Assembly (NCBI GenBank): GCA_005223125.1
Contig: NJBH01000037.1
Location: 1 to 35,669 of the forward strand
Reading direction: 5' to 3'
From: Promethearchaeota archaeon Loki_b32
GTDB lineage: Archaea; Asgardarchaeota; Lokiarchaeia; Sigyniarchaeales; SOKP01
DNA: 35,669 nucleotides
Both the position numbers and the translations under genes were made by a program. The notes beneath the pieces are model-generated. The model saw nothing but the letters and a program-made list of their open reading frames with translations, was not told where the DNA came from and searched no databases. Numbering within the stretch: the stretch's first letter is position 1; every line of letters starts with the position of its first letter. This document shows, in pieces, positions 1-35,669 of this stretch.

Positions 1-822
1 CACAGTATATTCATTCTCTATCGTATCATAGAATATTTCATCTCCAATATTAACACCCCATTCCACATCATCTGTGATATCATAGTCAAATACTTGTTTC
101 ATTGAAGCATTAATTAACAATGGACCATCACCCATTTCAACCTTCAAATATGCTTTTCCATAATTCATGGTTCCATTATCATAATAATACCCCTCAGAGA
201 AAAATCCATCTGTGGAATTGGAAAAGTAAATCATGTTCGTATTCGTATCATTTGTAAAATCATCGAACTTGTTATAAGCCCCCATTTGTGATGCAGGATA
301 ATACATTGTTTCATTAATAATCGGTGCTAGAATATCCACTTCTACATTATTTGAACCATTAATTGGTAGCAAAAAGGGCATTCCATTCCTACCTGCTCTG
401 ATTCTATGTTTTATTGAGTCCGTGTTATTATATCCAAATAGAGCTAATTCTTGATTTGAATATTCATATGTTTCTAACTCTCCTTTAGTGACATTATAAT
501 AATATTGTGTTGCATTCACTTGCGAAAATTCATTTACACCAAGCCAATCAATAGTGACATCTTCAATAGATGTAATATTATAGATCCAAATATCTCTAAA
601 CATCATAGTCACTTCACCAGTAGAAGCATTTGTAATAATAAATTCTCCTTCGAAATACAAATGATCTCCTACATCAACCTCCCAATGCCATGCATTTTCC
701 GGATCTGATTCTGGTATTGCTGGTCCAGCACGAATAGGAGCAATTAGTGTACTTAGTGTCATTGTAGTAGTCAATAGAATTAGGAAAATAACAAAAAGTC
801 TCTTATTTCTTTTTGACATCAT
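1..822 (-). CDS. Secreted/cell-surface glycoprotein, N-terminal part (runs off the left edge; absent from the ORF track)
   Basis: Manual translation from ATG at 822 is open to base 1: MMSKRNKRLFVIFLILLTTTMTLSTLIAPIRAG (signal-peptide-like), many N-x-S/T sequons, and a recurring W-x-V-x-x-G-D motif (WEVDVGDHLYF ... WGVNIGDEIFY). Confidence 0.8.
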   Translation of the reverse strand, partial: MMSKRNKRLFVIFLILLTTTMTLSTLIAPIRAGPAIPESDPENAWHWEVDVGDHLYFEGEFIITNASTGEVTMMFRDIWIYNITSIEDVTIDWLGVNEFSQVNATQYYYNVTKGELETYEYSNQELALFGYNNTDSIKHRIRAGRNGMPFLLPINGSNNVEVDILAPIINETMYYPASQMGAYNKFDDFTNDTNTNMIYFSNSTDGFFSEGYYYDNGTMNYGKAYLKVEMGDGPLLINASMKQVFDYDITDDVEWGVNIGDEIFYDTIENEYTV

Positions 823-989
823 CAAATTTAACACTTATTTAATTTTTATTGACAAATTTGTTATATTCTTATTTATCAATAGATAAGATTAAACAAATAG
901 TAGCAGATTGCATTTTTATATTTATGTTCTTTTAAAGTAAAAAAATAGGACAGTTATTTTTAAGATTGAGACTTAACATATATTGAGAT

Positions 990-1724
990 TTAAGATGATA
1001 AAATACCTAATAATTCCTCTAATGAGTTAATTAACAAATCTGGTTGACAATATTTAAGTATCTCTCTTTTACTAACACCACTTGCTACTCCTATTGTCCA
1101 AAATCCAGCCTCTCGACCAGCAGTAATGTCTGATGGCATATCACCTATCATCAAGAATTCATCTCTACGCCGATTCTCATAGTTTTCCAAGGCAGGTTGA
1201 AGTGCCATAGGATCTGGTTTTTGAACGGGAATTTTATCACTTCCATAAACACCTTTAAAAATTTTATCGATGCCCTCTTTTTCCAAATGTTCAATTATCG
1301 TTTCAGTTTTATTATGAGAAACAATAAAAAGATCACAAGATTTAGCGAGTTTTTCTAAAAGAGGTTTGAATTCTGGGAAAAAAGAAGCATCTTTAGCATA
1401 TTCAAGATATTTACCAAATATTTTTAAAGCAATTCTTAACTTTCTAAAATAAGTTAAATCTTTGAGAGCCGTAATATGTTTGAATATTTCATATGATTCA
1501 AGCAATACTTTAGGCAATGGATACCCTTGAATAGTTTCTAACAGCGCTCCAATTTCTTGGATAGTGGTTTCCATGTCAACGTTGATATTCTTTTCAACCA
1601 AAACTTCCTCAATTGATTTTTCGAGTATTTCTCTTATATCAAGAAGAGTTCCATCAAAATCAAAAATGATTCCTCTAAGAGAACCAGATTGAAGTAGTTT
1701 TGTCAGTTGACTTTCTCTACTCAT
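990..1724 (-). CDS. HAD-superfamily hydrolase (phosphoglycolate phosphatase-like)
   Basis: Motif I FDFDGTLLD, KPDP, motif IV IGDMPSDITAG. Confidence 0.9.
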   Translation of the reverse strand: MSRESQLTKLLQSGSLRGIIFDFDGTLLDIREILEKSIEEVLVEKNINVDMETTIQEIGALLETIQGYPLPKVLLESYEIFKHITALKDLTYFRKLRIALKIFGKYLEYAKDASFFPEFKPLLEKLAKSCDLFIVSHNKTETIIEHLEKEGIDKIFKGVYGSDKIPVQKPDPMALQPALENYENRRRDEFLMIGDMPSDITAGREAGFWTIGVASGVSKREILKYCQPDLLINSLEELLGILSS

Positions 1725-1774
1725 ATTGTTTATTTAAAAAGCTTGAAGAGTTAAAAAGATATTGTTGAATTGAT

Positions 1775-2458
1775 TCAAGAGAAAGATTGTCTCAAAGCGC
1801 CATAACCTTGAATTATGCCACAGATGAGTAAAGTATATATCATTATTTTTTGTCCAATTACTGATATAAGCAATTTAATTTGGAAATTGGCGTTTTGAAC
1901 TGATGAGAAAGATATGAAATATATTCCTAAAATAATAATGGAAATCACTAGTATTTTTGCATAGAATTTTGGATAATTTATATCTTGATATATCACTATA
2001 GAATACAAAATCAATGAGATAAAAATAGAACCAAATCCAAATAGAACTAATAAATCATGTAAGTCCCCTATAAGATCAGAGGGAGTAAATGCAGTTCCAA
2101 CATAACAAACCCCTGTAAATATTCCAAAAATAGATCCTGTTATACTAATTCTTTTCAGTTTCCTAGTTTTAAAAAAGAACTTTGGGAATGCAATGAAGAA
2201 TGGGATTTGCGATAAACCCCATAAAGATAAAGCAATTGTAAATAACACAAAAGATTCCTTATTTGAAACCCCTGAATGGGCTACAGATCTCCCCAAATCA
2301 CTAAAATAATTATACCAAAATAAATAAGAGGGAGAAGAGGGATCTGAATAAGTTCCTCCCTTATAGAAAAACATTGCCACTATAGTCAGAATAATAAATT
2401 GGAAGGACCCAAAAATAACAATAATAAAAGTCCAGTATTTCCAATTTTTTAGAATCAT
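1775..2458 (-). CDS. Multi-pass membrane protein (DUF998-like)
   Basis: About 6 hydrophobic segments; Y-x-F-W-x-N-Y-F-S-D-L-G motif after TM1; His in the fourth helix region. Confidence 0.65.
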   Translation of the reverse strand: MILKNWKYWTFIIVIFGSFQFIILTIVAMFFYKGGTYSDPSSPSYLFWYNYFSDLGRSVAHSGVSNKESFVLFTIALSLWGLSQIPFFIAFPKFFFKTRKLKRISITGSIFGIFTGVCYVGTAFTPSDLIGDLHDLLVLFGFGSIFISLILYSIVIYQDINYPKFYAKILVISIIILGIYFISFSSVQNANFQIKLLISVIGQKIMIYTLLICGIIQGYGALRQSFS

Positions 2459-2670
2459 ATAGTAGTTATAATAATCTATTTTGAAATTTAAATGATTATT
2501 GAATGGATAATGGATAAGCTAAAAACTAAGAAAGAATTTATTTTTGTAATTAGTGGATATTTGCAAATCTCGCGCCTCGAGCACGTTCTAATCACTTATG
2601 GTACATAAAGACCTTTCCAGATTATCTAAGTAACCGTAAGGCTCTTATTCCATTTATATTTTAAGCAAAA

Positions 2671-3741
2671 TCATTTTTGAAATAATTTAGAATGAGATTT
2701 GAGATAGATCCGATTTCTCGAATCTACTAATTGTAAACTTCCCCATGAGTCAAATAAAGTTTCAGTTTTTCCTAAAATTAAAATTCCATTTTCATTCAAT
2801 CGATTTTCAATGATTTTTAAAAATTTATGTCGATTTTCTCGATTGAAATAAATCAAAAGATACCTACAGAAGATTATATCATACCTATAGGGCATTTTGT
2901 GACCCTTTGTAACATCTTCTTCGACAAATTCAATTTTATTCTTGATATTTTCTTTTATTACATTGGTGTGCCCAAAATGGGTTTTTTGTTTTGAAAAGTA
3001 CTTATTTTCGTAATAATCTGAAATTTCCTTCATTGAATCATCCGTATAGATCCCAATTTTTGCTTTTTTAATTGCTTCGGGAGCGATATCAGATGCTACG
3101 ATCCTATATTTGGGAAATCTTGGAACTTGAGTCTCAAGATTATCTAATATCATTGCTAATGAATATGGTTCTTCTCCAGTTGCACATGGACATGACCATA
3201 TATTAATACAATTATCTGTACTTTTCACACCCTTCATTTTTTTATAATATGAGAGTTGGTTGAGAAAAATAAATATATCCACATAGAATCTCGATGGTTT
3301 TTCAGTTAAATGCCGATTTCTATGGAAATTTTTAACTGCGTTAGATTTGGTGCGAAATTTAACCAATTTTGAAGACTCTGGTCTTATATTACTTTTTATA
3401 TCCTTTCTGCTAACTCTTAAGCCCTGAATGAATAAATCTTGAAATAATTCGAACACATCATAATCTCGAAAAAAGAACGTGTAATTTATAGTAAATCCAT
3501 CTATGAATTTTTTCACTTCTTCGTTATTTGATGAAATAAAATCGTAATATTGGTTAAGAGTTTTACACGGGACCCTAATCATTCGAGATTTTATACGTTT
3601 TTCTATAAATGTTTTATTATAATACTCAAAATTTAACCCCGTCTTTTTTCTTAATAAATGAATTAATGAGTTATACGATTTTTCATCAACAGGAATATTT
3701 TCAATAAGATTATCTTTATTTAAATTTGAATCAAAGCTCAT
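2671..3741 (-). CDS. cheR: CheR-type protein-glutamate O-methyltransferase
   Basis: TINYTFFFRD, IWSCPCATGEEPYSLAM, ASDI, YDIIFCRYLLIYF, LILGKTE are CheR motifs. Confidence 0.88.
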   Translation of the reverse strand: MSFDSNLNKDNLIENIPVDEKSYNSLIHLLRKKTGLNFEYYNKTFIEKRIKSRMIRVPCKTLNQYYDFISSNNEEVKKFIDGFTINYTFFFRDYDVFELFQDLFIQGLRVSRKDIKSNIRPESSKLVKFRTKSNAVKNFHRNRHLTEKPSRFYVDIFIFLNQLSYYKKMKGVKSTDNCINIWSCPCATGEEPYSLAMILDNLETQVPRFPKYRIVASDIAPEAIKKAKIGIYTDDSMKEISDYYENKYFSKQKTHFGHTNVIKENIKNKIEFVEEDVTKGHKMPYRYDIIFCRYLLIYFNRENRHKFLKIIENRLNENGILILGKTETLFDSWGSLQLVDSRNRIYLKSHSKLFQK

Positions 3742-3884
3742 AAATTTATCAATATTTTTGTAAACAACAGTGAATTGCTAATTTCCAATTTTACATTTCC
3801 ATAATAAACTTCATTAATTTATATCTTATTAGATAGAAAAAGTTGAAAAAAAAAAGTTAAACTTAATAAAACGCTATTAAATTC

Positions 3885-4838
3885 TTATTTTTTTAATCTT
3901 TCCAATAACTCTCGAATTTTAATTAATTCGTCTAAGCGTAATTTGTCTACTTTTATTTTATTTGAATTATCAATCTTAGATGAAGTCCCAATCGATTTTA
4001 TTTTTTCCCATATTGCTGTACGAATAAATGCTGATTGAGTTTGATGAGAAAGTTGAGCGTATTTTTTAATAACGGCTAATTCTTCTTCATCTACTAAAAA
4101 TTTAACTTGCTGGGTTTTTTTCAACGCTTCCTTAACTTTTTGTAATTCTTCCAAACGATAAAGCTTTTCTCTCTCTCTCTTTTTTAAAACAGCGTTATCG
4201 ATTTCTTTTAAATACTTTCCTTCAATATGTGATGGTATGGCTCTTTGTTTAATTTCTTTAAAAACTCTAGCCCTGGTATTAGGTGATCTCTGTTTACCGT
4301 AGAAAGATTTCAAATAAACTATTTGTTGAATTAAATTAGGATTTTCCTCCTCCAATTCTCTAATATTTTCTGTTGAAGTCTCAATATATCCTAATAAACC
4401 CTCTTTTCTTACAAATTCACGATATTTTTTTCTATCTATTTTTTCTTGGTTTTCAATTGCATCAAGCTTGTTTCCTATTAACAGAAGAGGTGCCCTATTT
4501 AGATTTATTTGCCACCAAATGTTTTTGAGACAATTTGTATGATATTCAAATGTTTCTGGTCGCGATAAATCAAAAACAAAGAAAATTGCTGATGCCCCAC
4601 TAGCATATAAATGATGGAAGGATTCAAATTGTTTATTATGAATAAAATCCCAAAATTGAAATTTATAATCCTTTCCTTTGAATTTTATTTGCTTTATAAA
4701 AAAATTTACTCCCATTTTTACTGTTCTATGTTCTTCGAAAACCTTTTCAGCATAATGTTCCATTATAGTTGTTTTTCCAACTCCAGATGCTCCAAGAACT
4801 ATAATTTTAAAGATATCTTCAAAGTGTTCTTCACTCAT
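3885..4838 (-). CDS. Degenerate Rab-like GTPase fused to a C-terminal ribbon-helix-helix-like domain
   Basis: G1 GASGVGKT, G4 GNKLD, G5-like ETST; G3 is degenerate (WDFIHN). C-terminal QVKFLVDEEELAVIKKYAQLSHQTQSAFIRTAIWEKI follows the CopG/RHH pattern. Confidence 0.75.
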   Translation of the reverse strand: MSEEHFEDIFKIIVLGASGVGKTTIMEHYAEKVFEEHRTVKMGVNFFIKQIKFKGKDYKFQFWDFIHNKQFESFHHLYASGASAIFFVFDLSRPETFEYHTNCLKNIWWQINLNRAPLLLIGNKLDAIENQEKIDRKKYREFVRKEGLLGYIETSTENIRELEEENPNLIQQIVYLKSFYGKQRSPNTRARVFKEIKQRAIPSHIEGKYLKEIDNAVLKKREREKLYRLEELQKVKEALKKTQQVKFLVDEEELAVIKKYAQLSHQTQSAFIRTAIWEKIKSIGTSSKIDNSNKIKVDKLRLDELIKIRELLERLKK

Positions 4839-4876
4839 TATCTTAATCCTCCAATTTTATATTAAATAAAATATTA

Positions 4877-4950
4877 TATGTACTGATTATGTACCTATAA
4901 TTTAATTAAGAATCATTACTATATAAATTTATGTACCGAATAAGTACATA
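4877..4950. promoter_or_regulatory. Candidate operator: TATGTAC repeats upstream of the GTPase-RHH gene
   Basis: TATGTAC at 4877-4883 and 4888-4894 (11-bp period), plus inverted repeat TATGTAC-N7-GTACATA at 4930-4950. Confidence 0.55.
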
Positions 4951-5054
4951 TGATTACTGTATCAAAAAAAACCTTTTAACCTTTTTAAATATAACTTTTG
5001 ATAGTTTTCTAATATTAAACATAATGGATTCTGTAATTAGAATAAAAAAGAGCA

Positions 5055-7415
5055 TTAAATTGAAGCGTGCTCCGTTCTTCTTATTATTTCATCCTGCAAA
5101 TCGGAACCTAAATTAATGAAATAATCACTATATCCCGCTACTCGTACAATTAAGTTTCGATATAGTTCAGGGTTAATCTGAGCAGCCCGTAAAGTATCTG
5201 CTGAAACAACATTAAATTGAATATGATGTCCATTCATTTTGAAATATACTCTTATCATATGAACCAATTTATCAATTTTCTCTTGATCTGAAAAAAAATG
5301 AGGTGCAAATTTTTGATTCAATAAGGTTCCTCCTGTTCTTAAATGATCAATTTTTCCAGCTGATTTAATCACAGCAGTTGGACCATTAATATCCATTCCT
5401 TGAACTGGAGAGATGCCTTCCGATAAAGGTGTATAGGCTTTACGCCCATCTGGAGTGGCACCTGTTACTTGACCGAAGTAAATATGAACAGTTGTAGGAA
5501 GTAGATTAATTCGATGTACTCCACCTTTAGTATTAGGTCGATTATTAATTGCATTATAAACAATTTCAAAAACTTGAGCAGTTATTAAATCAGCATAGTC
5601 ATTATCATTCCCGTATTTAGGAGTTTTATAGATTAGTTTTTGGTGAATAATATCATTTCCATCAAAATTATTATCTAAAGATTTTATTAGATCTTCTATA
5701 GATATAATATTTTTATCAAACACATTATATTTTAAAGAAGTTAGACAATCTGTGATGCTACCCATTCCCACAATTTGTATATAAGAAGTGTTATATTTTG
5801 CTCCACCATCATTATAATCCTTTCCATTTTTAATACAGTCTTCAATTAATATTGATAAGAATGGAGCGGGATTTTGAGCCCAAATACGTTCAATTATTTG
5901 ATTCCCCTTGATTTTAATGTCTACAAAATGCTTCACTTGCTTAGTATAAGCTTCAAAGAAACCATCAAAAGTTTCAAAAGTCGTAGGATCACCAGTTTCC
6001 AATCCAATTTGCTTTTTTGTTAGAGGATCGAAACCGTTATGAAGCGTTATTTCAAGAATTTTCACTAAGTTAAAATATCCTGTAAGAATATACGCTTCTT
6101 TCCCAAATGCACCAGATTCAACACATCCACTTGCTCCAGCATTGTATGCATCTATCAATGACTTTCCTTGCCTAGTTAATTCTTCAATAATGGCATCAGT
6201 GTTAAAAATTGAAGGTTGTCCAAAACCAGTTTTAATTATTTCAAGAGCTCGTTTTAAAAATTTATCTGGAGTTTTTTCACTGATTTGAACATTACTACTT
6301 GGTTGTAAAATCCGCATTTCTTCAATTACATCCAAGAGTATATAAGACATCTCATTAACTCCATTAGAACCGTCCTCTTTCAACCCTCCTATATTTATAT
6401 TACAAAAATCAGTATATGTATTGCTTTCTTCTGCTGTAACACCAACTTTGGGAGGGGCAGGTTGATTGTTAAATTTCACCCAAAAAGCTTGCAGTAATTC
6501 ATGTGCTTCTTCCCTTGTCATTTCACCATTAGCTATATCTTTTTTGTAGAATGGATATAAGTGCTGATCTAAGCGTCCTGGATTGAAAGAATCCCAGGTA
6601 TTATACTCCGTTATAACACCTAAATGAATGAACCAATAATGTTGGAGTGCCTCCCAAAAGGTTCTTGGTGCTCGTGAAGGAATATAAGTACAAATTTCTG
6701 ATATTTTCTCTAACTCTTTTTTTCTAATTGGGTCTAATTCCTTGGTAGCCAAGTGTATAGCTTCTTGTGCATGACGTTCTGCAAAAGAAATAATTGCATC
6801 TGCAGCGATATTCATCGCAGTTAACTGCTCTCTCTTATTAAATGCCTCAGGATCATTATAAAAATCTAATTTTTCTATACTTTCTTTTATTTCTTTCTTA
6901 AAATCTAAAAATCCCTTATTCCATATGTTTTTCCCACCAACTGTATGTCCAGGAGCTCTCTGTTCCATAAATTCTGTGAAAATTCCTGCTTCATATGCAT
7001 CAATCCATTCATCATCAACTTTAGAAAAAATTTTATCGCGAATAGACCTTCCTTTCCAATAAGGAATAATTATATCTTTTGTTTTTTGTCTTGTTTCCTC
7101 AGATACTTTAAAGGAAATTTTATCACGAGCATTTAAAATGTCTAAATCTTGTAAGCTGTGGCAACATACTTCTGGATATGTTGGAGTTGCCTTTGGTTCT
7201 GGACCACGTTCACCAACAATTAATTCCCCTTCATTAATGCAAATCTTTTTGTTTTCCATGAGATGCTTAAAAGCTTTTGCTCTTGCAATAGGAGCAGAAA
7301 ATTTATGAGCTGCACCATTTTTATAAAATTCTGTCAATAAAAGGGCACGTTCTAGTGAAAGATAAGGGATCAACCCTCGACTTTGAGTTCTCAATTTTTT
7401 AATTCTATCATTCAT
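5055..7415 (-). CDS. hypD: Glycyl radical enzyme, trans-4-hydroxy-L-proline dehydratase (HypD)-like
   Basis: Glycyl radical motif RVAGYS and Cys loop SGCVE; segments recalled from HypD: PTYPEVCCH, FTEFMEQRAPGHTV, FNNQPAPPKVG, SNTYTDF, LLPTT. Confidence 0.85.
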   Translation of the reverse strand: MNDRIKKLRTQSRGLIPYLSLERALLLTEFYKNGAAHKFSAPIARAKAFKHLMENKKICINEGELIVGERGPEPKATPTYPEVCCHSLQDLDILNARDKISFKVSEETRQKTKDIIIPYWKGRSIRDKIFSKVDDEWIDAYEAGIFTEFMEQRAPGHTVGGKNIWNKGFLDFKKEIKESIEKLDFYNDPEAFNKREQLTAMNIAADAIISFAERHAQEAIHLATKELDPIRKKELEKISEICTYIPSRAPRTFWEALQHYWFIHLGVITEYNTWDSFNPGRLDQHLYPFYKKDIANGEMTREEAHELLQAFWVKFNNQPAPPKVGVTAEESNTYTDFCNINIGGLKEDGSNGVNEMSYILLDVIEEMRILQPSSNVQISEKTPDKFLKRALEIIKTGFGQPSIFNTDAIIEELTRQGKSLIDAYNAGASGCVESGAFGKEAYILTGYFNLVKILEITLHNGFDPLTKKQIGLETGDPTTFETFDGFFEAYTKQVKHFVDIKIKGNQIIERIWAQNPAPFLSILIEDCIKNGKDYNDGGAKYNTSYIQIVGMGSITDCLTSLKYNVFDKNIISIEDLIKSLDNNFDGNDIIHQKLIYKTPKYGNDNDYADLITAQVFEIVYNAINNRPNTKGGVHRINLLPTTVHIYFGQVTGATPDGRKAYTPLSEGISPVQGMDINGPTAVIKSAGKIDHLRTGGTLLNQKFAPHFFSDQEKIDKLVHMIRVYFKMNGHHIQFNVVSADTLRAAQINPELYRNLIVRVAGYSDYFINLGSDLQDEIIRRTEHASI

Positions 7416-7461
7416 ATTTTCTAGCCTTCTATTGACACATTGATTAGGATTGTTAATATTA

Positions 7462-7650
7462 TTAAAAAACTATCTTAATCTCTAAATGTTGAGCAATTTC
7501 AGCTTCTTCAGGTGTAAACATTATTTTTATGTATTCCTTAAAGGCTTCAGAAATTTTTCCATTTTCATCGATTGGAATATCATTTGGATATTCTCTCATC
7601 TTTTTCAATATTACTTCATAAGGATCTTCAATTTCCGTTAAAATTCTCAC
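7462..7650 (-). pseudogene. Truncated N-terminal fragment, probably of a 4Fe-4S-binding protein
   Basis: 62-aa ORF with a FTPEEAEIA motif of the kind that precedes ferredoxin domains; ends abruptly and contains no Cys. Confidence 0.45.
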
Positions 7651-7666
7651 CTAATCTATATATTTC

Positions 7667-9355
7667 TTATCCACTACTCTCTTTTTCAGCTTTTTTAGCT
7701 TCTTTATCTCTAATTATTCGCCTTAAGACTTTTCCAACGGCACTTTTTGGTAAAGAACGTACAAATTTTACTATTCTTGGATATTTATAAGCCGCCATTT
7801 GCTCTCTAGACCAATAGATTATTTCTTGTTCAGTGATTTTTCCTTTATATTCTTTCTTAAGAATAATATGTGCCATAATATTTTCACCTCTTTCTGGGTC
7901 CTTAATACCAATTACAGCACATTCTTGAATCGCAGGATGTTCATATAAAACTTCCTCAATCTCTCTCGGGTAAACACTATGCCCCTTATACTTTATCATA
8001 TCTTTAATCCTATCGATTAAGAAAATATAACCTTCCTCATCCATTTTTGCAAAATCACCTGTCCGTAGCCACCTAAAGCCCCCGGCTTCAAAAAACACCT
8101 TTTTATTCTCTTCTGGTCGATTATGATATCCCACCATAACCTGAGGACCTGCGACAACTAACTCTCCAGATTCTCCAATAGGTAAAAAATTAAGATTCTC
8201 ATCAATAATCCCACATAAAGTACTCGCAACAGGGACACCACAACTCCCGAGCTTTTTTTTTGCCCAAGGAGGACTATTTGTGACTGTTGGACTAGTTTCA
8301 CTTAGCCCATAACCTTCTCCTAAAGGAAATCCTGTTTTTCTTTCCCATTCTTTAGCAATTTCGATGGGCATTGCTGAAGCTCCTACATTTGTATATTTCA
8401 AGCAAGAAAAATCCACATCTTTACTTAGTGGCGAGTTTAACAGATGAATAAACATCGTCGGTACTCCTAATAGTGTATTTGGTTTTTTTTCCTTAATTGT
8501 TTCAATAATCCGAGGAATATCAAATGTAGGAAAAATGAATCCTTTTCCCCCTGTCATAGGACCTTGTATAAGTTCACATGTTTGTCCATAGATATGATAC
8601 CAGGGAAGAATACAAATATTTACAAGATCTCCCTTAATGTAAGCTTCTTTCATGTAATTTGATATCTGCTGCATTTGGAGTATATTAGCAACTATATTAT
8701 GATGAGATAAACATGCCCCTTTGGGATCTCCTGTTGTTCCTCCTGTATACTGTATTACCGCGATATCTTCTTTAGGATTGATATTAACTTTGAAAGCTGT
8801 AAGTGTTTCTGGATTCTGTTCTAATAATGTATTGTAATGAATAATTTTGGTGGTTTCAGGCACATCAGGAATCTCACCGGCAACATTAACAATTATAATT
8901 TTCTCCAATGCCAGTTGATCTTCAACTTTCTTAAATTCCTTGATAAACCTATCAATCATAATTAAATATTTTGCACCAGAATCTTTAATTTGATATGCCA
9001 TTTCTCTTCCTGCAAATAGAGGACTTATGGCAGTTAACGTTGTTCCAAGCCCTAAGGCAGCAAAATAACAAATACTAAAGTGTGGGGAATTTGGTAACCA
9101 TAGAGATATAACGTCTCCTTTTTTTACACCTAATTTTAGAAGCCCTTGTGCTAATCTTCTTGTTAAATTATCCATCTCTTTAAATGTAAACTCTCTACCA
9201 AAATAGTCTATGCTTACTTTATCGCCATATTCTTTAGCTCCTTTCTCGAATAGGTCAATTAACGACAGGTCTTCTGGAATATCAATTTCTAATGTAATTC
9301 CCTCTGGTAAATAATCCTTCCAAGTTCTGTTTTTAATATAATCTGGGAGTTCCAT
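7667..9355 (-). CDS. fadD: Long-chain fatty acid--CoA ligase (ANL family)
   Basis: YTGGTTGDPKG, EGYGLSETSP, WLRTGD, DRIKDMIK, LPKSAVGKVLRR. Confidence 0.9.
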   Translation of the reverse strand: MELPDYIKNRTWKDYLPEGITLEIDIPEDLSLIDLFEKGAKEYGDKVSIDYFGREFTFKEMDNLTRRLAQGLLKLGVKKGDVISLWLPNSPHFSICYFAALGLGTTLTAISPLFAGREMAYQIKDSGAKYLIMIDRFIKEFKKVEDQLALEKIIIVNVAGEIPDVPETTKIIHYNTLLEQNPETLTAFKVNINPKEDIAVIQYTGGTTGDPKGACLSHHNIVANILQMQQISNYMKEAYIKGDLVNICILPWYHIYGQTCELIQGPMTGGKGFIFPTFDIPRIIETIKEKKPNTLLGVPTMFIHLLNSPLSKDVDFSCLKYTNVGASAMPIEIAKEWERKTGFPLGEGYGLSETSPTVTNSPPWAKKKLGSCGVPVASTLCGIIDENLNFLPIGESGELVVAGPQVMVGYHNRPEENKKVFFEAGGFRWLRTGDFAKMDEEGYIFLIDRIKDMIKYKGHSVYPREIEEVLYEHPAIQECAVIGIKDPERGENIMAHIILKKEYKGKITEQEIIYWSREQMAAYKYPRIVKFVRSLPKSAVGKVLRRIIRDKEAKKAEKESSG

Positions 9356-9540
9356 TTTTATTATCTCTTTAAAAATTTATTTTATTAATTAATGAATTTA
9401 GTATAAAAATTAAAATTTTCAATTCTCACATTATTATCTCTACTTTACAAATTATTTTTTAATGATTTATAATTATAAATTCAAGTATCTTTGATAAACT
9501 CAAAATAATTATTCTAATTTTAAATTATAGGTTTAAGATT

Positions 9541-11154
9541 TTGAAATCACAAAATGAATTAGGAGTTCCAGTTCCGGCAAATAAACCTCTAGTAGTTCGG
9601 ACTATTAAACAAGTTACCAGGGAACAACGTGAATATGTACTTAAAAAAACAGAATACAGTATGTTTTCTTTTCCCGCAGATTTAATCTTTGTAGATTTTT
9701 TATCTGATTCTGGCTCTGGAACAATGACGGATTTTCAATGGGCTGCTTTATTCCATGGAGATGAATCTTATGGGCGCAATAAAGGATATTATGTTCTTTT
9801 GGATGCGATTAGAGATACCTTCGAAAGAGGCGATACTCCAAATAGATCTATTAATTTAATTCTTTCTGGTGAAACAGATGTAAATAAATTAATGGATGAA
9901 CTTTACGTAACTTCATTTGAGGGTGGTTTTGTAAATGGAGGAACTCATCAGTTAACCCGTCCTAATGCTTTCATTGTTCCACAAGGACGATGTGCTGAAC
10001 ATTTACTCTTCTCAACTATTGCTCCTATCTTAAAACAGAAAAATAAAGATATTATTAATTATATTCCAAATAACGGACACTTTGATACGACTGAAGCTAA
10101 TATCGTTGCTAATGGTATTCAAGCAGTAAACTTATTCTCAACAAATTTAATGGATGACTTTCCTTATGATGAAATGGATAAGAGAAATCCATTTAAAGGT
10201 AATATGGATCTTAAAGGACTTGAAGATCTGATTAAAGAAAAGGGTGTAGATTCTATTCCATTAATTTATGTTACAATTACAAATAATACGGCAGCAGGTC
10301 AACCGGTTTCAATGAAAAATATAAAAGAAGTTCATAAAATTGCAAAGAAATATGATATTCCTTTTTTCTTCGACGCTTGTCGCTTCAGTGAGAATGCAAA
10401 CTTTATAAAAGAATTCGAAGAAGGGTATAGAAATCGATCTATCCTAAGTATTGTGCAAGAAATGTTCTCATATGTTGATGGTTTTACAATTAGTTTCAAA
10501 AAAGATGGATTAGCTAATATAGGAGGGGGATTTTTCTTTCGAGATAAAGGTGTTTTTCATAAAAAATTTTCCATTGATGAGGATATTGGGATTAAATTGA
10601 AAGAAAAACAGATTTTAACTTTTGGAAATGATTCATACGGCGGAATGAGTGGCAGAGACATAATGGCTTTGGCTGCAGGGCTTTATGAAGTTGTAAAAGA
10701 ACCCTATCTCTATGAAAGAAAAATTCAAGTTAGGGAATTCGCTAGAAAGCTTGCTCAAAATGGTATTCCCATTCTGCTTCCCGCAGGGGGTCATGCGGTG
10801 TATATTGATATGGATAAATTTTTTGAGGGAACAGATATGAAGATCGATGATTTTGGAGGTGTTGGTTTTACTATTGAACTTCTGAAGCATTATGGTATTA
10901 GATCTGTTGAATTAGGACCCTTTTGTTTTGAATGGGATAAGAAAACACCTGAACAACAGAAGGGGATCCTGAATTTAGTCCGCCTTGCAATGCCTCGAAA
11001 TGTCTATAGCGCTTCACATATCGATTATGCTGTAGCCGCTATTACAGAACTTTATCACAATAAAGAAAAAATTCCAAAAGTGAAAATCTCGCGAGGAGCA
11101 GAATTACGATTGAGACATTTTCAAACAGGACTTCAACCAATCTATAAAAATTAG
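9541..11154 (+). CDS. tnaA: Tryptophanase (PLP beta-eliminating lyase)
   Basis: DFLSDSG, GDESYG, QGRCAE, HFDTT, FKGNMD, TNNTAAGQPVS, DACRF, SFKKD (PLP Lys), GGHAVY. C-terminal LRHF matches tryptophanase rather than tyrosine phenol-lyase (LRFF). TTG start. Confidence 0.85.
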   Translation: MKSQNELGVPVPANKPLVVRTIKQVTREQREYVLKKTEYSMFSFPADLIFVDFLSDSGSGTMTDFQWAALFHGDESYGRNKGYYVLLDAIRDTFERGDTPNRSINLILSGETDVNKLMDELYVTSFEGGFVNGGTHQLTRPNAFIVPQGRCAEHLLFSTIAPILKQKNKDIINYIPNNGHFDTTEANIVANGIQAVNLFSTNLMDDFPYDEMDKRNPFKGNMDLKGLEDLIKEKGVDSIPLIYVTITNNTAAGQPVSMKNIKEVHKIAKKYDIPFFFDACRFSENANFIKEFEEGYRNRSILSIVQEMFSYVDGFTISFKKDGLANIGGGFFFRDKGVFHKKFSIDEDIGIKLKEKQILTFGNDSYGGMSGRDIMALAAGLYEVVKEPYLYERKIQVREFARKLAQNGIPILLPAGGHAVYIDMDKFFEGTDMKIDDFGGVGFTIELLKHYGIRSVELGPFCFEWDKKTPEQQKGILNLVRLAMPRNVYSASHIDYAVAAITELYHNKEKIPKVKISRGAELRLRHFQTGLQPIYKN

Positions 11155-31105: not shown

Positions 31106-31390
31106 GTGACTTTTATGAGCACGGTTAGGGTTGATAAAAAACATTTAAAATTGTTGGATAAATTGATTTCTCATTTAACTTTACGAGGAAATAAAATAAG
31201 CAAGAAGAACCTTGTAGCAAAACTGATTGAGGATGCAATGATAGCTGAAGGTCTTGAAGAAAATGAAGTTTCATATTCCATAACAGATGATCACGCATGG
31301 AAAGGATTGGACGATGTTTTTGAGTTAGGTATTGAAGATTTATCGGAAAAAGTCGATGAAATTTTATATCAGTTAAATGGGGAAGAATAA
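31106..31390 (+). CDS. Putative VapB-type antitoxin
   Basis: Small protein with an RHH-like N-terminus (STVRVDKK...) and acidic tail ending DLSEKVDEILY, directly upstream of a PIN gene. Confidence 0.7.
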   Translation: MTFMSTVRVDKKHLKLLDKLISHLTLRGNKISKKNLVAKLIEDAMIAEGLEENEVSYSITDDHAWKGLDDVFELGIEDLSEKVDEILYQLNGEE

Positions 31391-31802
31391 AATGGCAGTT
31401 TTTTTAGATACAGGATTTTTATTAGCAGTTAAGAACAAGGATGATAAAAATTTCCAAATTGCTCAATCTTGGATGAGTAGGTTTCTAAAAAATGAATTCG
31501 GGGAGGTATTTACCTCTACATTAGTGTTTAATGAATTGGTGACCTTAGCATTGGTAAGAATAAAACGTCCTGATTTCGCGATAAATTTGGGAAATTATAT
31601 TTTGAAGAGTAGAAAGATAAAGATTATTAGTTTTACGGATGACGATTTTAAGAATTCTTGGGAGACCTTTCAAAAATTTAAAGAAAAAAAATTATCTTTT
31701 ACTGATAGTTCCATTTTAATTCATTGCAAACGTTTAAACTGCAATTTTTTAGCTACCTTTGATAAACACTTTAAAGGTTTAATACCCTCAAATTTAAGTT
31801 GA
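31377..31802 (+). CDS. vapC: VapC PIN-domain ribonuclease toxin (likely start ATG 31392)
   Basis: FLDTG, VFNEL, LSFTD, ATFDKHF. Confidence 0.88.
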   Translation: MGKNKMAVFLDTGFLLAVKNKDDKNFQIAQSWMSRFLKNEFGEVFTSTLVFNELVTLALVRIKRPDFAINLGNYILKSRKIKIISFTDDDFKNSWETFQKFKEKKLSFTDSSILIHCKRLNCNFLATFDKHFKGLIPSNLS

Positions 31803-31868: not shown

Positions 31869-32609
31869 TTAATATTCTTCATTAATTTTTTTCTGAGGGC
31901 TTTTTCTTTTTTTACCAAATAAAATTTTTTGATTTTTTTCAACAAATATTGGTCCAAATCCTGTTAAATTCTCCAATGGACCTATTATTCCTTTAACACG
32001 TCCTGTTCTCGTATATGTTATTTCAGTATGTTTTATTGCCTTAAATACTTCATATGGGGTTTTAAATCTAGCTATTAATGTACTCGCCTTTTTAGACCCA
32101 ATATCTGCTAAACCTTCTATTATAAAAGACCTTCTTTCTTTTTTAGACATTGCTTTAGGAGCTTTTCTTGAAAATATAGGCATGGCATCTTTTACTTGTT
32201 CCCGGTAGGCAATCCTCTCAATAACAATTCCGGTATCTTCCAAATTTCTAGTTGGAATTACAGAGATACCTAATTTATATGAAATAAAAGAGAGTGCTCC
32301 GTAAATCGATGATATTTTCATGCCAGTATTTTCGAATACTTCATTATTTAAACCCTCAAGTAGTAAAATTGGATATTGATAAGTATCTTTTAACCGAAGT
32401 AGTTGTTCAAATAATCTATTATCCATTATTGAAGCTACAAAATCAAAACCTTCTTTTCTCTCTATAGCGACCTCACTACTGACAACAATATCAGCAATGT
32501 CTAGTTGTCTTGATTCATAAGTTATTACATCCTTTTTTTTATCTAATAGAGCCATTAACTTTTGTTCTCTATTATCTACAATTACATGGAGAGGTTTATT
32601 TTGAGTCAT
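31869..32609 (-). CDS. xpf: Short XPF/ERCC4 structure-specific nuclease with HhH motifs
   Basis: VDNRE, IAD-x7-IERK, RLFEQ, GLADIGSKKA. Confidence 0.85.
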   Translation of the reverse strand: MTQNKPLHVIVDNREQKLMALLDKKKDVITYESRQLDIADIVVSSEVAIERKEGFDFVASIMDNRLFEQLLRLKDTYQYPILLLEGLNNEVFENTGMKISSIYGALSFISYKLGISVIPTRNLEDTGIVIERIAYREQVKDAMPIFSRKAPKAMSKKERRSFIIEGLADIGSKKASTLIARFKTPYEVFKAIKHTEITYTRTGRVKGIIGPLENLTGFGPIFVEKNQKILFGKKRKSPQKKINEEY

Positions 32610-32747: not shown

Positions 32748-34163
32748 TTATTCATTTAAAAGTCTATATTTTTTAAGTCCTTCTCTCATATCTGCTTGAA
32801 ATGGTCCTGGTGTTCCTTCTATAAACGCTTCAACAATATCTTTATTTTCTACAATTTCTGAAACTCTCTTTTTGGCTTTCTCTTCTGCGAGTGAAGCGAT
32901 TGCCATCCTTGCCATTTGTTGAAACTGAGGTGGTGATAATTTTATTAATTCATTGAAAATTCTTTCAGTCTCGGGATTCCAATTTAACCCGCTTGTTTTC
33001 TTCTCCTTAGGCTCAGCGGAAGTAACTCCAAACTCGCGACTTGTTATAATATCATTCATATAATTCTTTATTGAATCTACATATCGGGTAGATTCTTCCT
33101 TATCTAGAAGAACTGCCTTATTTGCCCATTCCTCACAATAATCACATTCATAACACATAGCTATACAATTCTGCTTCTTGAAAAAGTCTATAAACCCGTT
33201 CAATTTGGTATTATCAATGTATAACTTTGATTTAGATTCCTTTCCAAGGGTTTCAGTTAATTTAACATTCGGATCTTTTTGTTCTAACCCGCCAAATGAC
33301 ATAGAGAACCCCTGAATTATGTCAATAAGATTTCCCTCATATTTTCGGGAAGAAAATGCTTTAACAGAATTAGTAATCCATTGAGTAGACATTCGACGGC
33401 CAGCTATTTTAAAATCATCTATACCGATAGCTTCATAATGGGATAGATCCTCAGGGCGAACCCATCTTGCTTTAAGAACTTCTGTAGGGTTTGAAAATTT
33501 AATAATACTACAATTTAATATGCAAGTATCAACATAGTTACGTTCAAATTGTTGAAAAGTTTGAGAAGCATGACCTAGGGTGTTATAATGATAAAGTCTA
33601 AAAGGGCATTGATATAGACATCCATCAGTTAAAAGTACAATAATTTTACATTTTACTGCTTTTTGTATTTGTTCTAATGTCTTGAAATCGCGATTTAGCA
33701 TAACATCTAGAGTGATTTCATCTGCTCCAAGCATTTCATAAAACTTAGCTCTATTCACACTGTTTACGTGAGCAATTGTAGAAACACGAATTTTTAATTT
33801 AGGGAATTGTTCCTTAATGAGCTGGATCAAAAATGGGATAGTTACAGTAACACTATCTGCTCCAATATCACTAATCCATTGTAAATATTTAAGGAGCTCT
33901 TTATGATAATGTTGATCATATTCCATATTATTCATACATGGAGCATTTAATAAATAAGAAAATCCCATTTTTTTCTCATGAAGTTTTCTTATGTACTCTG
34001 CAATGTCTTCTTCTGATACTTTCTTTAATAAAAAAGAGGGGCGACCTCCCCCAACTATTGAATGGTCAGAAACACCATATAAATCAGATACAGGATACTT
34101 AGCTAATTCATCTATAAGACTTAAATCCCAATTTGTAGCTACATGTAATTTTATTGATATCAC
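32748..34163 (-). CDS. U32-family Fe-S protein (UbiU/UbiV/RlhA-related) with an extra Cys cluster and a C-terminal DUF2621-like domain
   Basis: YLLNAPC, RVSTIAHV, GCLYQC...CILNC, FKIAGR (U32 KIEGR), CIAMCYECDYC, then WNPETERIFNELIKLSPPQFQQMAR...TPGPFQ. Confidence 0.82.
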   Translation of the reverse strand: MISIKLHVATNWDLSLIDELAKYPVSDLYGVSDHSIVGGGRPSFLLKKVSEEDIAEYIRKLHEKKMGFSYLLNAPCMNNMEYDQHYHKELLKYLQWISDIGADSVTVTIPFLIQLIKEQFPKLKIRVSTIAHVNSVNRAKFYEMLGADEITLDVMLNRDFKTLEQIQKAVKCKIIVLLTDGCLYQCPFRLYHYNTLGHASQTFQQFERNYVDTCILNCSIIKFSNPTEVLKARWVRPEDLSHYEAIGIDDFKIAGRRMSTQWITNSVKAFSSRKYEGNLIDIIQGFSMSFGGLEQKDPNVKLTETLGKESKSKLYIDNTKLNGFIDFFKKQNCIAMCYECDYCEEWANKAVLLDKEESTRYVDSIKNYMNDIITSREFGVTSAEPKEKKTSGLNWNPETERIFNELIKLSPPQFQQMARMAIASLAEEKAKKRVSEIVENKDIVEAFIEGTPGPFQADMREGLKKYRLLNE

Positions 34164-34183
34164 CTTTCTGTATGCTTAATCTA

Positions 34184-34573
34184 TTATTTTTGAATAGCTT
34201 TAGCATGAGCTTTGGCATTAAGTGGCAATAACGGCGCACATGCCATAAGCTTAGTAGGATCACCTTCAACATCATATGTTCCAGCCATTGTTGCTTCAAT
34301 CGGATTAGTTTCTCCCGAATTAACTTTTTTAATAGTTTCAAAACTCGTCTTATGAATAATTTTTGGAACATCTGGCCCATTATAATCACCCATTCCCCAA
34401 CTCATCTTATCTTCTTCGATCGATTGCCAATAGTCCATCTCAGGACGATCATTGATTTTGTATTGAAAGACTAAAGGTGCGATAGGTTGTAGTAGAGTTG
34501 GTAAGTCGGGTAGGTCATTATAGGCTTTCATGAAACTATCAAGATATGCTTCCCATTCATCCTTTGTGTCCAT
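34184..34573 (-). CDS. SCP2 sterol/lipid-carrier domain protein (UbiT/UbiJ-like fold)
   Basis: GETNPIEATMAGTYDVEGD matches the SCP2 G-x-x-N-P-x-x-A-x-M-x-G-x-x-x-V-x-G-D signature; GGAGGT SD upstream. Confidence 0.78.
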   Translation of the reverse strand: MDTKDEWEAYLDSFMKAYNDLPDLPTLLQPIAPLVFQYKINDRPEMDYWQSIEEDKMSWGMGDYNGPDVPKIIHKTSFETIKKVNSGETNPIEATMAGTYDVEGDPTKLMACAPLLPLNAKAHAKAIQK

Positions 34574-34648
34574 TTTTATGTTCTACCTCCTTTTTTTTTT
34601 AATTATATTATTTTTATTTACCATTTTTAGATCGTTATTAATTAAAAT

Positions 34649-35668
34649 TTATTTATAAGATTCAAGTCCAGCTTTAGCACCCATTAACAAAAAATCAACC
34701 ATGGTTCCATTATAATCATTTTCAATCTTGTAGTAAAGTCCGTTAGGTGTAAAAGTAACACCATATATGAATTTATGAATGTCACTTTGAAATGGAGATC
34801 CTTCAATGAATTTTTTCATCAATGGATGAAAGTGCATAGGAACTTCTTTGGCATCACGACATGCCATCCCAAAGCATAGACGTTCGATCTTTTCTGAATC
34901 CCAACTAAAACTATAATTGAGATGTACTGCATTACAACAATATTCCATCACTTCTTTAGATGCTACTTCAAAATCCAAATCTTCTACAAGCCTTCTGCAA
35001 TTCTCGTAAGTAGCTGTTGATGGATTCTTTAACATGAAATATATGTTGGTTGTATTATGCGAAAAATCAAAAGCGAATAGCGCTAATGTAGTTAATCCAT
35101 GTTTTTTGAAGTAGCTTTCATAGTTTTTAATACTTTCTGGAATGTATTTCATAGAAAAAAGGGGATCGATTGACCCAGGTATGATAAAAGGCCATATCTT
35201 TGAGAACCCTTTTCTCGCATCAATATCAACTCCATAACCCATGATATCAAAAACTTCCAATGCTTCTACTATCATTTTATGAATAGGATGACCATTTTTT
35301 TTGATTAAACCTTCATTAAGAGCAGTAATATACGGATCAGGATTATGGGGTATCATCATTTCTACATATCTTACTGATACATCTCTTCTTTCAACTGGCT
35401 TAGTTGTGGTTCTAATTGAAAGAGATGAACCAGAATAGAATTTTTCATAAGCATTAAGCGCTTTCCATATGGCTTCTTCATTAAAATCAACATCTGTAAG
35501 TTCACATAGTGTTTGAATATCTTTAACCATTTGATTAAGATTATTATTAAGCTTGAAATCAGAATTTACTTTTGGTAAATATAAATCAACATCAACCCCC
35601 AGTGCCTTTAGGTCTTCAATCATTGTTGTTTGAAAAGCTGGTGGTGTGACTTCAAACAGCGCAACAAC
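34649..35668 (-). CDS. ABBA-family aromatic prenyltransferase (CloQ/NphB-type), 5'-truncated by the window edge
   Basis: YGVDIDARKGFSKIWPF, FAFDFSHNTTNIYF, IERLCF, YYKIENDY resemble PT-barrel strands. The frame stays open upstream of 35623 to the edge (VVALFEVTPPAFQTT-M). Confidence 0.78.
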   Translation of the reverse strand, partial: VVALFEVTPPAFQTTMIEDLKALGVDVDLYLPKVNSDFKLNNNLNQMVKDIQTLCELTDVDFNEEAIWKALNAYEKFYSGSSLSIRTTTKPVERRDVSVRYVEMMIPHNPDPYITALNEGLIKKNGHPIHKMIVEALEVFDIMGYGVDIDARKGFSKIWPFIIPGSIDPLFSMKYIPESIKNYESYFKKHGLTTLALFAFDFSHNTTNIYFMLKNPSTATYENCRRLVEDLDFEVASKEVMEYCCNAVHLNYSFSWDSEKIERLCFGMACRDAKEVPMHFHPLMKKFIEGSPFQSDIHKFIYGVTFTPNGLYYKIENDYNGTMVDFLLMGAKAGLESYK

Positions 35669-35669
35669 G

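Follow-up and report, generated by a model that had tools for sequence, protein, structure and literature searches.

A small helical domain shared by four enzymes of an Asgard archaeal gene cluster, a possible adaptor for a lipophilic intermediate

Why would a soluble aromatic prenyltransferase (PT) and a U32-family protein carry what looks like the same small helical domain? This question is raised by one end of contig NJBH01000037.1 of Promethearchaeota archaeon Loki_b32 (assembly GCA_005223125.1), analyzed here over its whole length of 35,669 nucleotides (the window; contig C63 of genome G000, whose assembly comprises 71 contigs and 4.13 Mb). An earlier note made from the DNA letters had noticed that the PT frame, read upstream of its apparent start, resembles the C-terminal tail of the U32 protein. 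It turned out that the two segments belong to one domain, called DOM below, and that the two enzymes first noticed have to be extended to four: in this genome, the same non-catalytic module is attached to four enzymes, which belong to three unrelated folds. The features discussed are located in Table 1.

One domain on a prenyltransferase and a U32 protein

The PT frame is open to the contig end, and its 5′ part reads VVALFEVTPPAFQTTMIEDLKALGV. As the window is a complete contig, the gene is truncated by the assembly rather than by a stop codon. Homologues of this PT are at least 120 in number and come from Asgard metagenome-assembled genomes (Promethearchaeota, Hodarchaeota, Thorarchaeota and others); nearly all of those listed have 390 aa. 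Because these orthologues extend N-terminally with a conserved DOM, the ATG taken as start by the open reading frame (ORF) finder is internal, and the true PT start lies beyond the contig end, which corrects the gene model of the window. The orthologue P0001, 98% identical to the window PT, supplies the missing 51 residues, starting MEWQPKIKKLYEDMV, and a complete PT-borne DOM has about 78 aa and begins MEWQP. The visible end corresponds to the final 29 codons of the contig, where the DOM profile matches PT positions 52-79 in a six-frame hidden Markov model (HMM) search, and the first 51 codons of DOM lie beyond the contig end. A tblastn and HMM search of the whole assembly found these 51 codons on no other contig, the only hits being two paralogous copies on radical S-adenosylmethionine (rSAM) enzymes with a SPASM domain. 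The full N-terminus, obtained in this way through orthologues, shows no nearby stop and contains the first half of the domain.

The best ungapped fit of the 25 PT residues compared in the earlier note is to U32 residues 444-468, where 11 positions are identical and the BLOSUM62 score is 39. This score was reached by 2 of 5000 shuffles (p ~4e-4), and the resemblance of the two fragments, taken alone, is no more than suggestive. When the whole PT N-terminus was used as a phmmer query, the U32 tails of six genomes were matched with domain E-values of 1e-8 to 3e-5, and the reverse search works too. Comparison of the full-length PT family with the full-length U32 family by hhalign gave a single region, PT 2-86 to U32 391-471, with a probability of 98.5% and an E-value of 3e-15. 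Also, 24 DOM copies from four enzyme types and six genomes were aligned with zero gaps, and W3, P19, E35, R41, D50, P60, F63 and L71 are invariant or nearly so among them. Taken together, these comparisons confirm at the level of sequence that the PT and U32 segments are homologous and represent the same small helical domain, as the earlier note had proposed. The similarity was visible in such a small piece of PT because helices 3-4, with the consensus D-[LIV]-x-x-A-[LF]-[FI]-E-x-T-P-x-x-F-Q-x-x-M-x-x-x-L, are the part of DOM best conserved between enzyme types.

It could be argued that read-through of non-coding DNA accounts for the 15 codons upstream of the ATG and that their likeness to the U32 tail is accidental, given that only 25 to 29 residues are visible and that these alone yield no more than the p value above. 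Nevertheless, the same extension is present in the at least 120 orthologues listed, most of them of 390 aa, and the hhalign match and the gapless alignment over four enzyme types likewise refute this explanation, to which we give practically no credit.

A gene cluster with four copies of the domain

Four DOM copies were found in the 4.13-Mb genome by tblastn and six-frame HMM search, all of them in one cluster, which agrees with the single pathway that the earlier note had supposed. Copies 3 and 4 form the N-termini of two rSAM-SPASM proteins encoded at the beginning of contig C9, and the nearest named relatives of these proteins are AhbD, NirJ and AhbC (E 1e-33 to 1e-40, far under the equivalog cut-offs). 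Contig C9 starts within a B12-binding rSAM (B12-rSAM) gene whose last ~8 codons are missing; in three other genomic loci (L007, L018, L019), ~54 bp separate the end of this gene from the PT gene downstream. The cluster genes lie on the minus strand in both contigs. From this synteny of gene order and strand, we infer that base 35669 of the window joins base 1 of C9 over an assembly gap of ~234 bp, so that the two contigs form one cluster of ~12 kb, with all five rSAM genes on C9.

The order of the joined cluster is a B12-rSAM enzyme of 494 aa, a divergently transcribed B12-rSAM enzyme of 470 aa, a 232-aa membrane protein without family match, the two DOM-rSAM-SPASM enzymes, a B12-rSAM enzyme of ~471 aa, DOM-PT, a free-standing SCP2 lipid-carrier protein and U32-DOM, the SCP2 gene lying 20 bp upstream of the U32 gene. 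The same layout was observed in L003-L007, L018 and L019. In the U32 protein, the cysteines C76, C182, C186, C214 and C218 are invariant in the family alignment; conserved cysteines that could bind a 4Fe-4S cluster, as expected of a U32 hydroxylase of the UbiU/UbiV type, are present. Between the core and DOM stands an invariant CX3CX2CX2C motif, which may be a candidate site for a second Fe-S cluster or another metal, and a poorly conserved linker of ~25 residues precedes DOM. This is the single U32 protein of its type in the genome; a second subunit, as in a UbiU/UbiV-like pair, was not found.

A LuxE gene adjoins the cluster in L007. Its counterpart in the present genome is on contig C36 and is therefore not counted in the core cluster. 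A stretch of C36 holds a LuxE-like gene and three B12-rSAM paralogues of the cluster enzymes, and may be a related lipid-tailoring locus.

Table 1. Location of the features discussed (in the window, unless another locus is named)
Feature	Position	Strand	Basis or remark
PT frame, open to the contig end	34649..35668	-	
Visible C-terminal third of DOM on PT	35582..35668	-	From helix 3 to helix 4; equivalent to residues 52-80 in orthologues of 390 aa
Internal ATG taken as start by the ORF finder	35621..35623	-	Met67 of the 390-aa protein (orthologue alignment)
Catalytic ABBA aromatic prenyltransferase domain PTase_Orf2	34688..35539	-	Pfam PF11468, E 7.6e-50, open-frame residues 44-327; near full-length (model positions 3-283 of 287)
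PT stop codon	34649-34651	-	
SCP2 lipid-carrier protein, 129 aa, free-standing	34184..34573	-	Pfam PF02036, 21.9 bits (cut-off 21.3)
U32 protein	32748-34163	-	
U32 core, residues 1-385	33009..34163	-	Pfam PF01136, E 6.7e-14
Invariant CX3CX2CX2C motif (C333, C337, C340, C343)	33135..33167	-	U32 family alignment
Full DOM at the C-terminal end of U32, residues 393-471	32751..32987	-	Alignment, HMM, hhalign
Two DOM-rSAM-SPASM genes	L002 (G000:C9) 1461-2843 and 2856-4223	-	tblastn and six-frame HMM search
Joined cluster	L002 (C9) 1-8300 and window 32748-35669		
LuxE-like gene and three B12-rSAM paralogues	G000:C36 113006-132653		
LuxC::DOM::rSAM-SPASM operons	L025 901-7552; L026 1296-8190; L028 8793-16205		FMN reductase last in L028
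Short U32 beside U32-DOM-SCP2 fusion	L018 11015-14219; L020 5259-8406		
Free-standing DOM behind a B12-rSAM gene	L031 (G201:C13) 7534-9292		
Trimmed cluster	L033 (G144:C1) 6049-10468		
Small-protein/PIN-domain pair and ERCC4-family nuclease	31106-31802 and 31869-32609		
Arf/Roc-type small GTPase, 289 aa	18938-19807		

Fold, relatives and distribution

The AlphaFold2 model of the U32-borne copy (pLDDT 95.2, pTM 0.84) is a compact four-helix bundle. Along the chain, a short strand and a helix (residues 5-15) are followed by a long helix (20-40), by another short strand that pairs with the first and by two further helices (48-58 and 61-73). As modelled, and with copies found at either end of their hosts, DOM is shown to be a non-catalytic domain that folds on its own and whose position on the host is not fixed. 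The conserved pair R41/D50 may be structural; a comparable structural Arg/Asp pair exists in histone-type helix-strand-helix folds.

The likeness to DUF2621 and PCP_red put forward in the earlier note held, by sequence, for the former family, below its cut-off, and not for the latter in this genome. Among the 24 aligned copies, 20 match DUF2621 (PF11084) at model positions ~55-137, the C-terminal 60% of the model, with a best E-value of 3.4e-6, all of them under the Pfam cut-off of 27.7 bits. The copies of this genome score 16-25 bits (U32 tail 22.1-25.4 bits, E 1.6e-4; 23.9, 20.6 and 16.1 bits in the genome scan), P0001 scores 13.6 bits, and the distant relative P0148 reaches 29.2 bits. We read DOM, on these matches, as belonging to the same superfamily as DUF2621 without being a curated member of it. 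The free-standing bacterial proteins of 77-90 aa named 'DUF2621 / PCP reductase family' resemble DOM in size and helical character; unlike them, the copies of the cluster are fused to enzymes, and the match says nothing on mechanism, as DUF2621 is without known function. PCP_red (PF08369, a model of 45 positions with a cut-off of 32.5 bits) matched no DOM copy of this genome, even at E-values up to 10, and matches the DOM region of the bacterial relative P0152 with 28 bits. PCP_red forms the C-terminal helical part of ChlB/BchB; DOM differs from it by an additional fourth helix, and the DOM cluster is without a nitrogenase-like partner or a tetrapyrrole enzyme.

Structural comparisons point to a common helical arrangement. 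The best Foldseek match was 2L09 (asr4154), which we take to be a nuclear magnetic resonance structure of a PCP_red domain, with a probability of 0.92 but an E-value of 0.27, followed by histone folds; its superposition gave Z 6.7 and an rmsd of 2.6 over 56 residues, and BchB chains were absent from the match lists. VIA-align placed AAA+ lid domains on top, with Z 9.8 and 9.6 over 72-78 residues for the lid of ChlI/BchI, Z 8-9 for the lids of MCM, ORC and Rpt (Z 8.0 and an rmsd of 1.6 over 57 residues for the Rpt3 C-domain bound to Nas6) and Z 5.5-6 for histones; values of Z below ~10 are in the range of this tool for common helical arrangements, and the superpositions describe the fold only. 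AAA+ lids and histone folds are the best superpositions, yet they bring no significant sequence match. The DOM profile found nothing better than E 0.05 among PDB sequences, all histone-fold proteins, and P0152 had no PDB match on its DOM region. As no ATPase domain was detected in the DOM proteins examined, the resemblance to AAA+ lids is one of fold. In a language-model atlas, the look-alikes at a score of 0.95 were small proteins from bacteria; DUF2621 is present in 22-54% of them and PCP_red in some.

Sequence identity between DOM copies is 72-85% within one type of host enzyme across genomes and 25-45% between types, so that the copies cluster by host enzyme. As seen in the aligned copies, this clustering shows the fusions to be old and DOM to be under purifying selection on each host enzyme.

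A search with the DOM profile among 1.84 billion representatives retrieved 256 proteins at E <= 1e-3, and architectures were counted for the 150 listed. Free-standing DOM proteins of at most 125 aa, some of which may be gene fragments, were the most numerous (68), followed by U32-DOM (23), DOM-PT (15) and DOM-rSAM-SPASM (10, one with LuxC in front); PT-DOM, with DOM at the C-terminus (P0129, P0136), and SCP2-DOM were each found twice and U32-DOM-SCP2 once. In 11 proteins DOM lies beside unassigned sequence, and one long protein was without a domain-level match on re-scan. The remaining 17 are large proteins of 850-1770 aa without any cluster enzyme, in which 3-10 stretches each match the profile with summed E-values down to 1e-17. 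They were discounted and are not regarded as family members, because the two that were checked (P0147, P0149) are STAND NTPases with TPR_10/TPR_12 repeats. These matches probably reflect a repeat-driven similarity between helical hairpins, which calls for caution in the use of the profile.

Among 301 sampled Asgard genomes, DOM was present in 26, usually as 4-5 copies within ~15 kb. It was found in 22 of the 68 genomes of the family to which the window belongs, and in one of the 21 other genomes of its genus. This uneven spread marks the cluster as accessory and patchily inherited.

Fusions to SCP2 recur. SCP2-DOM-PT fusions occur among the PTs (P0059), P0150 and P0221 are SCP2-DOM proteins, U32-DOM-SCP2 fusions occur in L018 and L020, and P0152 is a bacterial protein of the U32-DOM-SCP2 type. 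Both L018 and L020 encode three U32 paralogues, namely a short one without DOM, U32-DOM-SCP2 and U32-DOM. The short U32 (383 aa, no Pfam match) lies beside the U32-DOM-SCP2 fusion, a pair reminiscent of UbiU/UbiV with UbiT fused on. In genome G201, a free-standing DOM of 83 aa, of the U32-tail type, is encoded 40 bp downstream of a DOM-less B12-rSAM gene and apart from the main cluster (L031). A trimmed cluster with membrane protein, SCP2, U32-DOM and B12-rSAM genes but without prenyltransferase was observed in L033; it keeps a DOM remnant of 64 aa with an in-frame TGA, and its SCP2 frame has a weak DOM-like match at the N-terminus (E 4e-7). Finally, metagenome contigs of 58-63% GC carry an operon of LuxE, LuxC, a LuxC::DOM::rSAM-SPASM fusion of 950-1027 aa and LuxE.

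What the domain may do

We hypothesize that DOM is a portable adaptor which connects its host enzymes with a shared lipophilic intermediate or the carrier of that intermediate, a reading whose chances we judge to be evenly balanced. It is suggested by the recurrence of SCP2 fusions and by the lipophilic nature of every context in which DOM occurs (prenyl transfer, SCP2, LuxC/LuxE). Such a domain would let enzymes of unrelated folds engage one common partner, most likely a lipophilic (prenylated) intermediate or the SCP2 carrier holding it. The intermediate would be passed from prenylation to rSAM tailoring and O2-independent U32 hydroxylation with no escape into the membrane. DOM might dock on SCP2, bind the ligand directly or help to close the carrier pocket. 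Helices 3-4, being best conserved between enzyme types, are the candidate contact surface.

A close parallel comes from ubiquinone biosynthesis in Proteobacteria, with its UbiT-UbiU-UbiV and UbiJ/UbiK systems. As described in passages of the Ubi paper, UbiJ and UbiT are SCP2 proteins that hold the ubiquinone intermediates on which the Ubi enzymes work, UbiU and UbiV are O2-independent U32 hydroxylases that work with UbiT, and ubiT and ubiU are fused in Zymomonas (PMC6747719). Both systems combine an SCP2 carrier with Cys-rich U32 proteins that act, or in the present cluster would act, on a prenylated aromatic compound without O2, and both show SCP2-U32 fusions, ubiT-ubiU in one case and U32-DOM-SCP2 in the other; the idea of an SCP2-centred multi-enzyme complex itself comes from UbiJ. 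Unlike the Ubi systems, the present cluster has a soluble ABBA-type prenyltransferase instead of UbiA, a single U32 protein in the genome and five rSAM enzymes. The same passages of the Ubi paper contain no mention of a DOM-like module (PMC6747719), and we found no description of DOM or of this gene cluster in the literature searched.

Several observations weigh against the adaptor. The three B12-rSAM enzymes of the cluster are without DOM. The residues conserved over all DOM types are few and look mainly structural. The AlphaFold2 model of the natural SCP2-DOM-PT fusion (pTM 0.70) has a disordered SCP2-DOM linker and a DOM of pLDDT 62-89, and predicts no confident packing. Also, a phmmer comparison covering every ORF and a Pfam scan of ten ORFs detected no SCP2, PT or U32 in the LuxC/LuxE operons, and since these operons lack a detected SCP2, SCP2 cannot be the universal partner of the domain.

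A different role, suggested in the earlier note for the first two enzymes, is that of a docking tag, the DOMs binding each other or a scaffold and holding PT, U32 and rSAM-SPASM in one complex. The presence of one domain on four enzymes of one cluster would fit, and the closest folds, AAA+ lids and histones, typically mediate protein-protein contacts. However, the Z values stay within the range of common helical arrangements, and the modelled bundle is closed and monomeric and includes a small beta-bridge of its own, whereas a histone-type half-dimer is open. DOM is moreover the sole copy in the LuxC::DOM::rSAM-SPASM operons and occurs as a lone small gene, and the B12-rSAM enzymes would be left outside the complex. 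As free-standing DOM proteins exist and PT and U32 were not detected in the LuxC/LuxE operons, PT-U32 docking cannot be the general function of the domain, and we consider a metabolon of this kind unlikely. It seems somewhat easier to imagine that every DOM lies as a lid over the hydrophobic substrate pocket of the enzyme that carries it, in the way that the C-terminal PCP_red helices of BchB cover protochlorophyllide in structures of the dark-operative protochlorophyllide oxidoreductase. The sub-threshold relation to DUF2621, the PCP_red match on P0152, the Foldseek match to 2L09 and the DUF2621 and PCP_red families in the atlas clusters all point in this direction, and greasy substrates are expected in all contexts. 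But DOM stands at either terminus of PT and on a variable linker in U32, which leaves no single fixed lid geometry, many copies are free-standing, and PCP_red matches none of the copies of this genome; a lid acting in cis is thus rather unlikely in our view, although less so than the docking tag.

The architecture of the domain also recalls the recognition element (RRE, PqqD-like) of ribosomally synthesized and post-translationally modified peptides (RiPPs). Both are small non-catalytic domains, fused or free-standing, common to unrelated enzymes of one pathway, and the RRE is often N-terminal on rSAM-SPASM enzymes, as is DOM. B12-rSAM methylases and ABBA-fold prenyltransferases occur in RiPP pathways too, and the cluster could in principle be a RiPP-type or protein-modification system in which DOM binds a leader sequence. 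This is very unlikely, for no precursor peptide gene was found in nine clusters, where the conserved small ORFs were all shadows inside large genes and none was intergenic. DOM is a four-helix bundle with a two-residue bridge in a lipid-carrier context, unlike the winged helix with three-stranded sheet of the RRE, and Pfam scans of DOM and its host enzymes at domain level gave no PqqD-type family. SCP2 and U32 suggest a lipid-like small molecule, and the best matches of the rSAM-SPASM enzymes, AhbD, NirJ and AhbC, act on small molecules.

Returning to the adaptor, one may go further and see DOM as the small-molecule counterpart of the RRE, a portable receptor for the SCP2-held prenylated intermediate or for the intermediate itself, in a carrier-protein assembly line. 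The soluble prenyltransferase, the two rSAM-SPASM enzymes and the O2-independent U32 hydroxylase would then act on one carrier-held lipid, free-standing DOM proteins would serve the enzymes without a tag, and the product would be an isoprenoid compound in Asgard archaea. We offer this more specific version as a tentative one and doubt that it holds in full. In the biosynthesis of peptide natural products (RRE) and in megasynthases (docking domains, carrier proteins), non-catalytic recognition domains common to several enzymes are well established. To our knowledge, none is known from pathways whose enzymes tailor a free lipophilic small molecule. If true, the proposal would account for the anaerobic processing of a greasy substrate by soluble enzymes, would give a function to the widespread DUF2621/PCP_red-like small proteins, and would provide a sequence tag with which to find the other enzymes of a so far undescribed accessory pathway, in those archaea that are the closest lineage to eukaryotes. 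To the earlier observation, the present analysis adds the join of the two contigs, the corrected PT start, the operons with the LuxC::DOM::rSAM-SPASM fusion, the free-standing DOM behind a B12-rSAM gene and the conservation of helices 3-4 across enzyme types.

The window genes beyond U32 are unrelated to the cluster and include an ERCC4 nuclease, a PIN toxin pair, TauE, an acyl-CoA dehydrogenase and an ABC transporter. The small-protein/PIN-domain pair, with overlapping genes and probably a toxin-antitoxin system, and the ERCC4-family nuclease stand immediately past U32 and mark the 3′ boundary of the cluster. Further away, the window encodes an Arf/Roc-type small GTPase with an N-terminal extension of ~125 residues, typical of the 'eukaryotic signature' content of Asgard genomes.

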